Positions 4,583-63,505 of a stretch of DNA of 64,000 nt are shown here, in pieces. The DNA comes from Octopus sinensis (taxonomy: Eukaryota). The stretch is taken from positions 22,196,001 through 22,260,000 of the forward strand of contig NC_043005.1 of the NCBI RefSeq assembly GCF_006345805.1, written 5' to 3'. Both the position numbers and the translations under genes were made by a program. Every line of letters starts with the position of its first letter. Within the stretch, counting starts at the first letter, position 1. The notes beneath the pieces were generated by a model, which saw nothing but the letters and a program-made list of their open reading frames with translations, made no database searches and was not told the DNA's origin.

Positions 4583-4665
4583 CTTCATTAACATTTAAAT
4601 TATCTTTCACCGAAATTCTATAGAATCTCAGCTGTAACTTCTGTGACAAAGCTTCAGCTTCTTGT
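4583..4665 (-). CDS. RAB23: Rab23 coding exon 5 (83 nt)
   Basis: Acceptor ctctcaag, then QEAEALSQKLQLRFYRISVKDNLNVNE (G5 region), then donor gtaagt. Confidence 0.95.
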
Positions 4666-6550: not shown

Positions 6551-6590
6551 CTATTATTATTATTGGGAGGCACGCAGTGACCAACAACAG

Positions 6591-7830
6591 AATGAGGTTA
6601 GCATGGTCAGTTACTGGCTTTTATTCACTTGAGATTGTGTCAACTGTTTGAATCTACACAACAGAGTACACCTTTTGGACACATGAACGTGGTTGTCTTT
6701 GGTGATTTGTTTCAATTATCACCTGTTAAAGAAAAAGTGGTGTCTAAAAGAATCAGTTGCCATGATGCCCAAAGAGCATGCTTAGGCATTAGCAGCCACT
6801 ACTTGTTGAGATTCTTTGATTATGATGAGTTGACAGTTAACATGTATCAGAAAGGCAATATGAAGAATTACGTTAACATGCTCAGCTGAATCAGATTGGG
6901 TTTACTGCTTGACTCTGACATCCAAATTCTTAATGAGCATAGAATTGAATCCAACGGCAAAGCTGCTCTCAAACAGGTTGCTTACAAAATGTGTGAGCTG
7001 ACTCAGACAACTGATTTGAGTATCATTTGCATTATACCTATGAACGACTCGGTAACAGCATTTAGCAACCTTATGCTTGTTAAATTTGGCATTAGTGCTG
7101 TCGAGATTGCTGCCACTGATTCCAGCATGTGGCAAACCAAAGGTCAAAAAAAGAAAACTAAAAGTAAGAAGTTGACCACCCAGGCAAAAAAAAAAAAAAA
7201 GTGTGATACTGCTGGCCTTGAAACTGTCCTTAAAGTTGGTATTAATGCTTGAGTAATGCTTAAGCACAACATGGATGCAGACAGTGGTTTGTGCAATGGT
7301 GAGATGGGAACTGTCAAGACTCAACTACGAATTTGGAAAGATTACTTCCATTGACGTTCTCTTTGATAGTTTAAACAAAGTCTTTTTCCATCAAAACTAT
7401 CAAAGCCAACTACGAATTGTCACCTGGTGTGTTCATCACTAGAGATCAATTTCCCTTGTGTATTGCATATGCAATTTCTATCCACAAATCACAGGGAATA
7501 AGTGTCAATAGTGTCATTGTTGATTTGGGGACCGGCGTTTTCTCCGACAGTATGGCTTATGTGGCCTTGTTCAGAGCTCGCAAACTGTGCAATGTTCACT
7601 TGATTGATCTTGATCCATCGAGTTTGATCATGTGTGATTCCAATGCTTGGAAAGAATATAACTATTTGAGAGAGTGCATTAATGTGGAACCACTTCCATT
7701 GTGTAACGTGAGGCTTAAAATTATTAAACAAGCTAAAAAGGCAACTAAGGAGAGTAAAGTTGCCATAAATATGGATAGTGAAATCATCAACTTGCTGAAA
7801 TTGAAAAAGGCTAGATTTGACAACAACAGT
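6591..7830 (+). pseudogene. PIF1-family (SF1B) DNA helicase, 5'-truncated and frameshifted; Helentron/Helitron-like RepHel remnant
   Basis: Ordered motifs across frames: NEVSMV (Walker B remnant), PFGHMNVVVFGDLFQLSPV, ELTVNMYQ, LKVGINA*VMLKHNMDADSGLCNGEMGTV, QFPLCIAYAISIHKSQG, VDLGTGVFSDSMAYVALFRAR. Intronless, with internal stops. Confidence 0.92.
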
Positions 7831-7837
7831 TGCAAAG

Positions 7838-8470
7838 CCGTACAATGAGAGGAACACTTGTTTTGTGAACAGCATGATACAGGTTATCTGTCAGCTACCT
7901 TTGTAGGCCAAATATATGCAGTCCAGTAATGATATTGTCAATATTACATCTTCATCTGGAACTAATTGGTAGCCAACTTGAGAAATATTATTGGCAGCAG
8001 GTTTAACAATGGTACTCAGCAGTGTGCGCATGATTTTTGGAAGCACATTTATTATTCACTGCCTGAAAATGTGAAACAAACATTCATGTTTGAGGAGAAT
8101 ACCTTGCTCAGGTGCACTAGAAAATACGAGGCCAATTGCCCCAAATTACACAATAACGAGTGTGATTGCGTATTGACCAATGGGTGTGGCACTTCCATGA
8201 ATACGGCCAACCTCAAGTCTGATCTGAAGATGCATCCTATTAGTGACAGTTTAAAAGCTTGCTCAAAAATGAGACTTCAATTATCAAGAGGTGCAGTCTG
8301 TGTGGCATTGACACCGAGCACACTGGTATAGTGAGCCGTGTGTTCCCAAACACTATGTATTACTTGGTTGTTTATTTGAACAGATTCAAATATATAGACA
8401 ATCAGATGGTCAGGATTAATTCAGAGTTGATGAATTATTCTGTTGACAATAGGGATAACCTTTATGTTTG
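7838..8470 (+). pseudogene. Ubiquitin-specific protease (peptidase C19/UCH) domain remnant directly after the helicase
   Basis: Cys-box YNERNTCFVNSMIQVI (Cys codon 7859-7861), FNNGTQQCAHDFW (QQDAHEF box), KRCSLC zinc pair, and FPNTMYYLVVYLNRF (LxIxLKRF box). The His-box is absent because of truncation at about 8470. Confidence 0.8.
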
Positions 8471-10406: not shown

Positions 10407-11402
10407 AGATAGACATAGATGTTAAGAGATGAGATGATATTTGGATTGTCCAGTTCAGAAATAATGTGTAATATAATATCCTTTGCATATATTTAGTCAT
10501 TTGATTTAGAACTACCATTTCAACTGCTCGTGCTCTTTTATCATTATTAGTATTATAAATACTAAAGGGTTAAATTCTAGAATATACACTCCACTATGTG
10601 AATCAACATATTTGACACCATTTGTGTAATGAATACTTTCTAGAATGGTGTATCTTGTCAAAGATTTCACTCTTTAGCATCCATAATACAAATGGTGTTA
10701 CATATGTTAATGTACTCACATACAGTAGCTTAGTTGTACCTTGTCCAAAGTTTAATCTTTTAGCATTCATAAGACAGACAGCTATTGCTGAAACAGCAAA
10801 TTTTTTATAAAAGCTGTCCCAGCAGTAACCATTGTTTCTTATTGACTATAGTGTATCTAGGAGATTTTTACGATAGTACAGAATGCTCTAGTAGAGATTT
10901 GGTTGTTATTTTTAGCAATTGTGAAAGTTCACTTGTACTGATAACTCTGACAGCATTAGATATATTGATGTATAGCTATTGCAGTTTGATGATCAGCAAT
11001 ATGGAAATTCATGTAATTAGAGATGAGGAACTTGTGACAATAACCATAAACAGCTCTCATTCCTTGGCACTGAATACTGTTTTAAACTTCCCCCTGGTAC
11101 ATACATATGCTATACACAGATATATTGAAATATTCAGATAAATTAAGACAATCTCTCTTGCATCCTTTGTGACATTTAATGTTTATAACTTTAGACAGGC
11201 AGTTTTCTCATAAAGTACAGTTATGAATATTAAAGGGTTTAACTTTAGATGCACAATTGTAGATAGTTAGTTTTACTTTTATTTCTAAAATATTAAATGA
11301 ACAAATACCTCTTTTAAAATATTTAAAGAAGAAAAAAGATTAACTAAAATAAAAGTAAAAAGATTTTTGAAGGACAAAATTGATAAATGAAATCCAATTT
11401 AC

Positions 11403-11482
11403 ATTTGTACAACTGCTTCGTCTATCAAGTCAATTTTGTTCTGTACAATAACAGTTATAATACTGCCAACTTCCTCTTCGAC
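11403..11482 (-). CDS. RAB23: Rab23 coding exon 4 (80 nt)
   Basis: Acceptor tctcatag, then VEEEVGSIITVIVQNKIDLIDEAVVQ (G4 NKID), then donor gtaaat. Confidence 0.96.
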
Positions 11483-17177: not shown

Positions 17178-18314
17178 TATGAGGGAGAGTCAAAAATTAT
17201 AAATTATACACACTCTTGTTTTTTCAATGTATTTATACAAATGCAGGGGATAAACAAGTATATCATTTTTCTATATAGTCTCCTACCTTTCCAATGCATT
17301 TGGTCCAGTGGTCCACAAGCTTGCATATTCCCTCCAAGAAGGTTTTCAGTTGATCATGCAACCATTTATGCACCACTTCCTATGTGAACATCATCCATAG
17401 GAAATCGACAATCAAGTAAACCATCTTTGAGTGGTCCAAAAGATATGATAGTTAGAAGGGTCAAAATCTGGGCTGTAGGCAGGGTGTTCCAGCACCTCAA
17501 AACCCAGTTCATTAATGGTTTCAACAGTTTGGGTGACCATGTGTGGGCATGCATTGTAATGAAACAACAAAACTTTCTTTGACAATAGGCTTTGGCATTT
17601 GGTGCAAATTGCTGGCTTCAGTTTGTTGGCCAGGAAGGCACTATATCTTGCACTGTTGATCATAAACCCCTTTTCCAGGTAGTCTTCAAGTATAGGCCCT
17701 TTTGAGTCCCCAAAAGAGTTAGTCTCAACTTTCCCATGGAAAACTGAGTCTTGAATTTCTTCATTGCTGACGAGCCAGGATGTTTCAACTCCATACTCTG
17801 TCTTTTAGATTCTGCCTCATAATGATGGACCCATGCTTCATTTGTGGCTAAAAATTCCTCATTGTTGTAGCAATCAAGTAAACATTTGCAGACCTCAAGA
17901 CATTTGCACTTGTGCTCTACAGTAAGCTCTCTTGGCACCCATCTTGCACAGACTTTATGGAATCTGAGCTCATTGTGGACGATTTGATTGGCAGAACCAT
18001 GACAATCTGCAGAGAATGAGCTACCTCATCATATGGTAACTTGCTGGTTCACCATTACCATCTCTAAAGCTTGCAGAATCTTCTCATCAATGGTGGAGGT
18101 TGACAGGCATCCCCATATTGTGGTAAAAGCCTCTTATGAATTCCAGCACCTGACAGACCTTCCAACCATAGAAATTGGAACATGATTAGGCTCAAACTTC
18201 AATCATGTGGCCACAATAGTACCAACTATAAGCACACATGCACAGAAGGCAGAGTGACAATAATAAAGATATGTTATGGTGAAAGTGTGGATAATTTTTT
18301 TACTTCCCTTCGTG
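17178..18314 (-). mobile_element. Mariner (D,D34D) transposon, degenerate, with both TIRs
   Basis: WVPRELT, EAWVHHYEAESKRQSME and HPAYSPDFDPSNY motifs. TIRs are tatgagggagagtcaaaaattat and ataattttttacttcccttcgtg. Confidence 0.92.
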
Positions 18315-54363: not shown

Positions 54364-55710
54364 TCACTTACCTGTCCTTTTGTTTTCACTGTCACCTGAA
54401 TGTTCATTCCCAATACGAAGACCATCCATATCCATTCTTACTCCGAAACTGTCCTCCATATATTCCACGAATTCATCGCTCATTCTTGTATCTTTCACCT
54501 CCCAATTCTCCCTTTCACACCTCAACACAAACTCATCTATATTCTTCTTTTCCAGCACTGTATATCTGGTCCCAACCATTTCATACCATTCATACTCCTC
54601 CATTACCCTTTTAACTTCTTTCTGTTCAGTCACGATATAAATGTTCGGCCTGGGTTCGTTTTCAAACTCTTGTCTGTCTGTATTATTATTTTTCTTTTGT
54701 TTTCTTGTTGGAGGGGAGCGGGTGGGTTCACTGTCTGCAGGGGAAGGGTGGGATTCAGAGGGTGCGGGTGGTGTTGGGGTGGGTTGGGGCTTCGCACAGT
54801 TTTTCTTTTTCTTTCTTTTTCTCTTTTTTCTTCCTTCTTCCCACTCTTGTTGCATCTCCTCTTCTTCTGTCGTTTCTTTTTCCGTTTGGTTCTCTTTGGT
54901 TTCTTCCTCTTTTGGGGCTTCCGCGACAATTTCCTTTTCTTTTTCCTTTGGTGGGGGAGGGCAGTAGGCTCTTATGTGACCCCTCAGGCCACACTTGTAG
55001 CACCTGGGCGCCCTACCCTCCACCCACACTCTCATAATAATATTTCCAGTTTTTATACTGTCCGTAAGCTTTTCTATAACTTCCGCCTCCGTCTGTATGT
55101 TCATTACTAGTGTGGCACCTCTCACGCCTTCATATTTCATAATGGCGTGGAGGATGTCCACTTTATCTTCATTTCCTTTGATAACCACAGCCGTTATTAA
55201 TTCGCCCTCTAGGTGTGGAGGTATTCCTTCCACCCTAATTCTGGTGGTCCTTCTATTCAAATACGAGGGGAACAAGTAAAACTTTTCTGTACTCACCACC
55301 TTGGCTGCTTTCTCACTTTTAAATTGTACCGTTATGGTTCCATATTCTAATCCTTTTGTCATGTACACAATTTCTTCTGTCTGTTTGAGAGCCTCTTCAA
55401 TTGCTTCCATGTTAATCACTTCCATTTTTCTACCTCCATTCATAACTACTTTATATTTAATGGTTCTACGATGGAACCAGTCTCCGCGCCCTGCTGGAGG
55501 CAGCAGCTCGACCTCTCCGTTCTCGACCTCCTTCATGAACTCCTGGAAGCCCGTCAACTTAGCCAGGTCTATCTCTTTTTCTGTTGACTTCTTCGTTACA
55601 CCTGCGTAGGTGCTTTCCATTTTTTTCACCGCCAACTCCTCCTCAGATGTCGACGAATTTTCAGAGAAATTTCTCCCTTCCATCTCATCCGTTTGGTAGA
55701 GGCGGCTCAT
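54364..55710 (-). CDS. L1/Tx1-type ORF1 (gag-like) protein, 448 aa, uninterrupted
   Basis: First ATG at 55710. RRM-like region GTITVQFKSEKAAK..FYLFPSYLNRRTTRIRVEGIPP, then CCHC knuckle VEGRAPRCYKCGLRGHIRAYCP and a Glu/Lys/Pro-rich tail. Confidence 0.85.
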   Translation of the reverse strand: MSRLYQTDEMEGRNFSENSSTSEEELAVKKMESTYAGVTKKSTEKEIDLAKLTGFQEFMKEVENGEVELLPPAGRGDWFHRRTIKYKVVMNGGRKMEVINMEAIEEALKQTEEIVYMTKGLEYGTITVQFKSEKAAKVVSTEKFYLFPSYLNRRTTRIRVEGIPPHLEGELITAVVIKGNEDKVDILHAIMKYEGVRGATLVMNIQTEAEVIEKLTDSIKTGNIIMRVWVEGRAPRCYKCGLRGHIRAYCPPPPKEKEKEIVAEAPKEEETKENQTEKETTEEEEMQQEWEEGRKKRKRKKKKNCAKPQPTPTPPAPSESHPSPADSEPTRSPPTRKQKKNNNTDRQEFENEPRPNIYIVTEQKEVKRVMEEYEWYEMVGTRYTVLEKKNIDEFVLRCERENWEVKDTRMSDEFVEYMEDSFGVRMDMDGLRIGNEHSGDSENKRTGK

Positions 55711-55819
55711 AGTCGCCTCAGACCGAAAAACGGCCTCCCGAACAGAAAACGTGCGACGCGAAACCGCACCAACCGACGTTCCAATTCCGCAACCACAATT
55801 CACTTTTTGTTCTTTTTTC

Positions 55820-56380
55820 TTTTTTAACCGAATTTTACAGAGCGCAAGAAAAAACGCGACCTTTTTTCTCTACATTGTATACTTTATAGACAATAGTTTT
55901 TTCTTTAATTTAATTTTTTATTATCCATCTGGACTATTCCATTTCTGCACGCTAATTTTATTTTAAATTTATTCCCATTCATGTGAAACCACTTATTCAA
56001 GTTTAAATCATTGATGCAATTTTATACCAATTGCTATTTTTACTTTTGTTATGTTACGATTATATTATACTTTAGTTTGATTTTAATTATTACTTACTAC
56101 ATATAATTCAATTGTTATTATTTTTATTGTTAAAGTGAAATAGAGAAATATTTTTGTTTCACTTTTAACACGTAATACTGAAATAGTGGAGAAGATATGA
56201 TATTGCTATGGGCTCGCTCTAGGCAAGAAGTTGAACATTTTTTTTTGCCCATGAAACTACATGGACCCTAAGTAAGGCATGTGTTAAATTTGAATGAAAT
56301 TGGTTGTGTAGTTCTCAAGTTTTAGGGAAACACACAGACAGACAGACAGACACACATTCACAGTTTTATATATATAAAGA
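55820..56380 (-). mobile_element. Non-autonomous Helitron-like element
   Basis: Minus-strand start ATCTTTATATATATAAAACTGTGAATGTGTG(TCTG)n followed by CCAATTTCATTCAAATTT. Confidence 0.55.
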
Positions 56381-61500: not shown

Positions 61501-62054
61501 AAGACCAGAAATTAAGTGGAAGGGAAATGCTTGATTATATTATACTAGGTGCTTTATTTTATTGACCCAGTTAGAATGAAAGCAAAGTTGAAGTCAACAA
61601 GATTTGAACTCAGAATGTAAAGAATTTTGTATGAGACTTAAAATTCTGCCAATTTTTATAATATGCAATTGTGTATGTAATTGTATTTACCAAATAAAAA
61701 AAAAAAAGCAAACATTTTATGTACATGCTTGTAACTTGTGTTTTTTTTTCTTCTAGCTTGAAGATGCCCCCTCTTCTTTGAGGACACAAATTGACATGCA
61801 GAATACCATAGCCGAGCATTGTTATAATCATCAACTTTGGAGATTACCTTATCTACCAGAATTGGGAACTAAAAGTTCTTTCCAGAGACGCAAACATTCC
61901 TACATAATTCTTTAAACTAACATGACCAGAATAGTTATTATTCTGTTTAAATTATAATTAAATTATTTAAGTTCTAATTATGACAATGCAAATATTTAAA
62001 GAAGCTTAAGCAATTCCTACTACTTTCGAGGGAAAATACTATTAGAGAATAAAA

Positions 62055-63505
62055 ATGGAGAAAAGTGACTTAGATGAGAATTTTACATACCAAGATGATA
62101 TCATTCGTCGCACACGGAAAGCAATCCGTGATTTGCATACACTTCGTAATGAACACCTCAGCATCATCAATAATATCAAAATGAATTTCAAAAGCAATGT
62201 AGTTGATACAAATGATATAACAGTAGAAAAACTTGATGTTTTGAAACATTCCCAAGAAGCAATAGACTTGGCTTTGGAAGAAGCAGAAATAACAATGCTT
62301 TTGACAAAACATTTGCAGTATCTTGAAGGAGAGAACTTGAAACTGCGTACTGAGGTGTCACTTCTGAGAAAAGAGAATGATTGGTTAAGAAGTGAATTGT
62401 TAGATGCTCAGACCAAATTGCAAAACTGTCAAGAATCTCTTGTAGTTGCTGAGGAGAAAATAAAGCACTTTGAGTTCATGAAAGAGTTAAATTTTGATGA
62501 GAATGAAGAAAAAACTGATTATGATAGTGAGGGCAAATGCCGCCCTTCATCTTTTGATTTGAGTTTCTTGGATGACATTGTAGAAGATGCAGAAAGTCCT
62601 GGCTATGAAATTCCTGCTCGATTCCGATCGTTGTATGACTTAATAACACAGTATGTTATGCAAGGTCGACATCAGGTGGCATTAACTTTATGTAAGCAAA
62701 CAATACAGAATTTAGAAAAAACTAGTCGGTTTAACCCTGAAGAAGCTATAGTCCTACATATGCAGGCTCGCATCTATAAAGATATGGGCAACATGCAAGA
62801 AGCTGTCAGAGTGTTAAAAGCTGCTCTTTTAATAAGAGAAAACACTGTAGGTCATGAACATCCTTCTGTGGCAGCAGTTCTAAATAACCTTGCTGTGATA
62901 TATGGAAAAAGTGGTAATTTCAAAGATGCTGAAAAAATGTGTAAGAGAGCTCTGGAAATAAAAGAGAAAATTCATGGTACTTATCATCCTTCGGTGGCAA
63001 AATTATTCAATAATCTGGCACTTCTCTGTCAAAATCAAAACAAATATGAACAAGCAGAGTACTATTACAATCAGTCTTTGGAAATATATAAATCTATGTT
63101 TGGAAATGATCATATGTCGGTAATGAAAAGTAAAAATAACCATGCTTCTTTATATCTTCGGCAAGGAAAGTATCGGCAAGCTCAGGATATCTACAGAGAG
63201 TTCTTATACAGTTTTGTGAAAAGAAATACGGTAGCATCGATGATGACAGTGGGCATACTTTAACTCCTCAGGAACAAGAAAATGGTGGCTTGTTAATCTA
63301 TTATATAAAAAAAATATGCGAACGGAGTAAAATGGGTTTGAACGTTTTTAAGAATCCTGCATTGATCACAACTTTGGTGAACATGGGTATACTTCATAGA
63401 CTTATTGGTAAAAACAAAGAAGCTTCTCTCTTTGAAGAGAGTGTCTTTAGAATGAAAAAGACTAACAGCCGCTATAAACTAGTAGCAGTTCCTGAAGAAA
63501 ATTGA
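62055..63505 (+). CDS. KLC: Kinesin light chain-like, intronless, with one frameshift at about 63198 (retrogene or processed pseudogene)
   Basis: Heptad region LEGENLKLRTEVSLLRKENDWLRSEL, then GYEIPAR and TPRs (HPSVAAVLNNLAVIYGK, LFNNLALLCQNQ). After the frameshift: CEKKYGSIDDD and TPR6 TTLVNMGILHRLIGK. Confidence 0.92.

Follow-up and report, generated by a model that had tools for sequence, protein, structure and literature searches.

A decayed Helitron-like remnant with helicase and ubiquitin-specific protease sequence in a Rab23-like gene of Octopus sinensis, and its relatives

The remnant and its surroundings

The window analysed here is a 64,000-nt stretch of the Octopus sinensis genome (contig NC_043005.1, positions 22,196,001 to 22,260,000), the minus strand of which carries coding exons of a Rab23-like gene at about 21108, 18913, 15400, 11482, 4665 and 550; the gene is presumably Rab23, judging by its G-box sequence. 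Coding exon 4 (11402-11482, -), upstream of the host intron, and coding exon 5 (4585-4665, -, bounds approximate) flank a remnant that lies antisense to the gene in coding intron 4, where a preliminary description had placed a decayed reading frame. Two other frames were observed in the window. An uninterrupted frame of 405 codons at 62046-63505 (+), which opens with a coiled-coil-like segment and has TPR repeats (TPR_12, 4.5e-55), continues in another frame, and we take it to resemble an intron-poor kinesin light chain copy. A 501-codon open frame at 54364-55869 (-), with a CCHC knuckle and a Lys/Glu-rich tail, gave no Pfam match at 0.001 and is likely a retroelement ORF1/gag.

The remnant spans 6568-8441 (+), its start having been moved from the originally proposed 6591 by the match of its 5' tip to other copies. 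It is a decayed, internally deleted and 3'-truncated copy of an octopus Helitron-like family, in which a 27-nt 5' tip, the latter half of a PIF1 helicase and a ubiquitin-specific protease (USP) domain lacking the His box are preserved. Six-frame translation bore out the PIF1 and USP motifs on the plus strand, in the order and at the positions first reported, and showed that the frame changes five times and is hit by at least three stops (6887, 7250 and 7904). The 5'-terminal tip (6568-6594, +), of which the first ~7 nt are missing, matches 14 other copies at their 5' ends, 12 of them with 93-100% identity over 23-31 nt. A large internal deletion joins this tip to Walker B at a 3-nt microhomology; in the DEVSMV-like motif noted earlier, the N of 'NEVSMV' derives from the 5' tip fused to Walker B by the deletion. 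The helicase comprises Walker B to the 2B region (6592-7321, +), with the first two stops, a single frame change near 6655 and 85% identity to copy L030, and the C-terminal motifs V (IHK form) and VI (7375-7659, +). A Lys-rich linker (7660-7837, +), frameshifted near 7825, precedes the USP Cys box (7838-7960, +), in which the Asn and catalytic Cys are retained ahead of the third stop, as evidenced in translation and Pfam analysis; the Cys box was found at 7838-7903 and in copy L013. The Gln box and fingers region (7966-8262, +) and the CxxC with the next strands (8257-8441, +), the latter recognised from copies and profiles, follow before the similarity to the family ends at 8441, short of the His box. 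His box and Asp are both absent, and the window copy itself cannot work.

Pfam matches to window fragments all fell below the curated cut-offs (PIF1 E 0.0014, UvrD_C_2 2.5e-5, UCH Cys box 0.0018); of the USP segment, the Cys box gave this weak match to UCH, and the two later USP pieces gave no Pfam UCH match. Profiles of non-octopus relatives matched the helicase at 7e-57 (6611-7321) and 5e-32 (7375-7659), and the USP at 1.3e-6 (7969-8169) and 0.075 (8244-8423), the 7969-8169 piece scoring 16.5 bits compared with a top of 4.6 bits in 200 shuffles. P0003, an annotated Octopus bimaculoides protein with a Pfam UCH match above cut-off (3.4e-7), aligns to window positions 7552-8465 with 63-82% identity. 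No further parts of the element were found in the window and 10 kb upstream, apart from a 69-nt opposite-strand match at 18183-18251.

The octopus family and its chimeric copies

Searches of the genome gave 21 matches for the USP piece, 49 for the helicase end and at least 40 each for the 5' end and the 3' piece of the family (family 1), the copies of which are 80-87% identical to the window copy. The longer copies looked for were present: the helicase adjoins the USP in six others (L013, L014, L030, L033, L036 and L038), ruling out a chance juxtaposition of the two. The proposed run of the helicase through the linker into the USP holds in L033, where a single 182-codon open frame extends from motif V to the Cys-box region across the junction, and in L038, where helicase, linker and USP share one frame, but not in the window copy; the junction is frameshifted in three of six copies (window, L014 and L030). 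In L013 the end of the linker is in frame, but an insertion ahead of it interrupts the junction, and L033 has lost the catalytic Cys. L028 carries the upstream HUH Rep (Helitron_like_N 3.9e-6) whose existence had been left to be checked, and the intact USP His box, likewise sought, was found in L014 and L030, where, as in P0003, the Asp is present too. P0003 is 88% identical to L033, and its gene model may cover what is left of that same insertion. With dispersed copies that carry Rep and Helitron ends, the proposal of a mobile-element remnant is substantiated as a rolling-circle transposon; a viral origin, the other option raised initially, is ruled out by the same features and by the lack of viral genes in the copies read.

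The ends of the family are those of canonical Helitrons (HLE1), with 5' TC, 3' CTRR and an A/T target. The 5' ends read A/TC in 16 of 22 cases and are accompanied by a long predicted hairpin (-19 kcal/mol), and the 3' ends read CTAG/T in 10 of 15 (8 at the position given by the alignment, the other 2 behind short deletions). The Helentron-type termini first anticipated (subTIRs, TT target) are absent, the family showing no TT target, short terminal inverted repeats or 3' stem-loop of Helentron/HLE2 type, and no strong hairpin was found at its 3' end. Empty sites were recovered in TA-repeat contexts only, with no clean one outside them, so that A/T insertion is not distinguishable from TA duplication. 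A comparison of the two ends for short asymmetric repeats gave one 11-nt internal match and none that was terminal. Many copies are non-autonomous derivatives of 1-2 kb. Inverted repeats of ~150 nt bound the last ~760 nt, and their left arm is a reverse-complemented copy of the 3' end. Such a structure may be explained if the element inserted into itself in opposite orientation, a mechanism proposed for FoHeli in the accessible text of PMC5148889. This terminal unit was seen at L033 7505-8271, L154, L158 and L170, with an exact start at the left arm in 2 of 20 loci and with longer repeats extending into the flanks in L170; it may also move alone.

Where DUF6570 would be expected, the long octopus copies contain 1.75 kb from a separate family, an HLE1 one that bears an OTU. 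Their bases 234-1842 are 80-85% identical in BLAST to the 5' part of that family, comprising the OTU and a Lys-rich and Cys-rich stretch, and are followed by ~140 nt from behind the donor helicase and then by the HLE2-type Rep. None of five long copies has DUF6570 upstream of the Rep (controls 6e-17 and 1e-14). The donor, represented by L131-L146, is an HLE1 Helitron family of the octopus that has classic ends and encodes an N-terminal OTU; 15 of the 16 donor-type loci fetched gave no HLE2 match, and the sixteenth, L136, is a family 1 copy itself. Neither chimera junction coincides with a donor terminus, ruling out a nested HLE1 insertion. The captured part is 87.4% identical to the donors, equal to the identity of copies within either family (87.7%, one pair, and 87.9%), so that the capture would have occurred within the bursts of both families; it has four private shared bases in 1337. 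A microsatellite between the captured OTU and the Rep shifts the frame between copies, and the chimeric copies, lacking DUF6570, were probably moved in trans.

HLE1 transposase frames that run for 1720-1846 codons uninterrupted by a stop were also seen at L104, L106, L107 and L111, and the octopus genome therefore contains recently active Helitrons. In an unsystematic look, most octopus HLE1 Helitrons with long open frames showed no isopeptidase domain. L147 (2139-3020) and L148 (2410-3294, both oriented) contain DUF6570 and, directly after it, an OTU-like stretch, downstream of which no Rep-helicase match was obtained.

HLE1-like ends on an HLE2-type core raise the question of whose ends these are. 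The family could have arisen when a non-autonomous HLE1 shell took up the Rep-helicase-USP core of an HLE2 element, the TC and CTAG ends then being foreign to the USP lineage, and the HLE1 sequence in long copies without DUF6570 and the abundance of HLE1 transposases in the octopus genome would fit such an origin. Nevertheless, we consider it rather unlikely, given a second octopus USP-bearing family with ~40% protein identity to family 1 and no BLAST DNA match to it: the last ~65 nt of the two families are alignable, whereas the donor HLE1 end is different and classic. This common stretch favours, without proving, ends native to the USP lineage. The second family was seen as 3' fragments (L016, L019, L020, L022, L027 and L040, also L024, L026, L031 and L039), several of them within a block of 8-10 kb, the duplicates of which are 93-99% identical; L032 may represent a third family. 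A word-based protein search with the USP of the second family gave no match.

Relatives and their C-terminal isopeptidases

A profile of the octopus USP identified 76 proteins, including P0025, a protein of 2245 aa on a 7852-nt contig that contains DUF6570, Rep, PIF1 and UCH in one chain. The same order in one predicted chain was found in P0092, P0123, P0094 and others, and such intact predicted single proteins occur in insects and metagenome contigs; together with the sister copies, they confirm the suggested position of the deubiquitinase C-terminal to the helicase. DUF6570 is present in the nearest intact relatives of the octopus family. A scan of metagenomes for DNA around the intact P0092 found none.

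A search with the last 1446 residues of P0025 gave 177 proteins, 120 of which were listed; the query included the USP and consequently enriched for USP-bearing matches. Named hosts among the matches listed are Rhodnius, Linepithema, Nasonia, Cyamophila, Diaphorina, Parnassius, Ephydatia and Mnemiopsis. The last domain, assigned with profiles seeded from relatives and confirmed in position by Pfam for 22 proteins, was USP in 32 of the 120 matches listed (one without a helicase end found), OTU in 52, Ulp1/C48 in 6 and USP followed by OTU in 4. An isopeptidase was counted as the last domain in 95 of these 120. Two others have only an N-terminal OTU and 24 have no isopeptidase, many of the latter being cut short. 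Some of these 24 end just after the helicase; P0182, P0187 and P0189, within the C48 clade, have tails of ~230-245 residues after it that gave no match to USP, OTU or C48 profiles. No AP endonuclease was present in the domain lists of the 120 matches listed or in the 22 rescanned, and in the octopus family it is the USP that comes after the helicase, not the C-terminal AP endonuclease of Helentrons (subgroup b).

The Rep-helicase tree contained 125 rows (114 of the 120 listed relatives, the other 6 being too short, 5 octopus rows filled to 29-47%, and 6 HLE1 rows as root), Repbase references being absent. Octopus family 1 joins P0123 and P0145, two USP-ended, DUF6570-bearing proteins (99), apart from the octopus HLE1 rows (100), and a 30-row IQ-TREE analysis gave the same placement, with one OTU clade unresolved at the base of the tree. 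The octopus core matches HLE2 proteins only and not the HLE1 type, so that the earlier impression of a Helentron-leaning helicase is upheld by tree and core matches alike. P0145 (Rep-PIF1-USP), which adjoins the octopus family, is labelled as coming from a gammaproteobacterial MAG and probably stems from eukaryotic DNA binned with it. Each of the four subclades of the 125-row tree contains USP-ended rows, and AU tests (LG+G4), with groups chosen after the first tree was known, reject a single clade of OTU-ended (p 1e-69) or USP-bearing proteins (p 7e-4), a result that supports several swaps of USP, OTU and Ulp1 in the same slot. USP is likely the ancestral state of the slot.

The catalytic Cys, His and Asp are kept in 23 of the 38 USP domains in the matches listed, 9 being gapped or cut and 6 changed. 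Of the changed domains, four are followed by an intact OTU and one by another intact USP, while the sixth, in P0171, stands alone, with no replacement found; the four proteins with a dead USP and an intact OTU form one clade and count as one event. His, Asp and Cys are present in all six C48 domains. A model of P0003 from 35 sequences reached a pLDDT of 77 (38 from the single sequence) and matched USP12, USP21 and USP2 in Foldseek at E 5e-12 to 2e-11, the USP fold being supported by the Atlas too; a sequence search of the PDB gave weak PIF1 matches only. Helitrons do capture gene pieces, as family 1 did with 1.75 kb of another Helitron, and the USP could accordingly be a functionless passenger of host origin. 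This is highly improbable, since 23 of the 29 complete domains, with identities of 25-50% across insects and other hosts, have retained the catalytic residues, and since the domains lie in frame and at the same position.

Known systems and a possible role of the protease

The architecture was at first put forward as a candidate new one. However, the accessible text of HELIANO (Li et al. 2024, PMC11417382) already lists UCH, OTU and Peptidase_C48 among 20 stable domains, with UCH nearly confined to HLE2, where subgroups c and d are enriched for it, and the helicase-USP combination itself is not new, albeit UCH is counted there among domains in different ORFs and named by the text supplement in the domain table only. 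The octopus family shares with HLE2 c/d the HLE2 Rep and PIF1, a UCH domain (PF00443) beside RepHel and the lack of an AP endonuclease. According to the same text, UCH, OTU and Peptidase_C48 lie in separate ORFs, with OTU upstream of RepHel, and hosts are mostly lungfish and axolotl, whereas in the present elements, the hosts of which include octopus and insects, the UCH follows in frame at the C-terminus, OTU and C48 of the relatives occupy the same slot, and the octopus ends are not of the TT/short TIR type.

Compared by described features, the proto-Helentron of Phytophthora (Thomas et al. 2014, PMC4067079, in its accessible part; PMC11417382) is alike in its Helentron-like Rep/helicase without endonuclease, 3' CTAG, A/T insertion and 5' stem-loop. 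It starts with TT instead of TC and has SET/TIR cargo and 12-nt repeats in place of the USP, the ~150-nt inverted 3'-end copy and the animal host. Helentrons with OTU/VTD, as far as described in the available text of Erven et al. 2022 (PMC9741609), likewise have a deubiquitinase inside the rolling-circle transposase ORF, with classes substituting for one another; their VTD domains are active deubiquitinases, and different classes were suggested to serve one need, but the C-terminal position is taken by an AP endonuclease where the present proteins have an isopeptidase (of USP class in the octopus). In non-canonical FoHeli elements (Chellapan et al. 2016, PMC5148889, accessible text), a TC start and a 5' hairpin go with HLE2 proteins, and composites form by self-insertion, opposite orientation included, but these elements end in ATTTT or CTCCTGT with short asymmetric repeats, and the chimeras described for them are within one group rather than between HLE1 and HLE2. 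The cellular C19 proteases USP12, USP21 and USP2 have the same fold (Foldseek E 5e-12) and Cys, His and Asp boxes at 13-18% identity, the domain here being compact and fused to a transposase. No report of an in-frame C-terminal USP fusion was found in the mainly open-access literature searched, although Figure 7 of HELIANO (PMC11417382, seen through its accessible text) may show UCH downstream. The same literature likewise gave no report of an interchangeable USP/OTU/Ulp1 slot, an HLE1-HLE2 chimera or an HLE2-type transposase between Helitron-type ends. The fused exchangeable slot and the mixed anatomy of the octopus family appear not to be catalogued there.

The HUH Rep nicks DNA and keeps a covalent tyrosine link to it during strand displacement by the PIF1 helicase, and hosts mark such protein-DNA adducts with SUMO and ubiquitin for removal. 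An isopeptidase tethered to the helicase could strip ubiquitin or SUMO in cis from the covalently DNA-linked transposase; the removal of these tags would prolong the transposase-DNA intermediate, and a SUMO protease or a deubiquitinase would each suffice. Such tag stripping in cis is a serious candidate for the role of the enzyme, though we stop just short of calling it probable; it would explain why ubiquitin and SUMO proteases are interchangeable and why one active enzyme per chain seems to suffice. The USP might instead act on host chromatin or defence proteins, such as ubiquitylated H2A/H2B or silencing factors, since chromatin deubiquitinases are among its fold neighbours and since the accessible text of PMC9741609 proposes the protection of 'proteins required for transposition', none of which it names. 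We regard this as unlikely, the shared position of ubiquitin and SUMO enzymes right behind the helicase pointing to a local job of low specificity. Self-processing of the transposase, with ubiquitin incidental, would be in line with an ORF of >2000 aa and with viral deubiquitinases, which often process polyproteins (PMC9741609, accessible text), but three unrelated folds of different specificities would all need to cut the same chain, and this account is quite improbable. Returning to the locus, it very probably holds a dead fragment of an HLE2-type Helitron-like element, the RepHel of which was fused in frame to a C-terminal USP likely to deubiquitinate the DNA-bound transposase.

A wider joint reading is offered tentatively, as possible rather than probable. 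The relatives would form a widespread animal HLE2 clade with a dedicated C-terminal isopeptidase slot, in which the removal of ubiquitin or SUMO in cis is a core step of transposition; USP would be ancestral, with several replacements by OTU and one by a SUMO protease, the old enzyme decaying once a new one was added. The octopus family would be an animal proto-Helentron-like lineage and a recombinant of two major Helitron groups that nevertheless kept multiplying. The locus is a fossil, but the pattern in its relatives makes it testable why rolling-circle transposons keep gaining deubiquitinases, and the intact multi-copy proteins, such as the Rhodnius and Linepithema models, permit a test with catalytic mutants. 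The C-terminal fusions of the relatives correct the published picture of separate ORFs with OTU upstream only, and the octopus family indicates that in animals the type of transposase need not go with a particular end structure, a point of concern for annotation tools based on ends.
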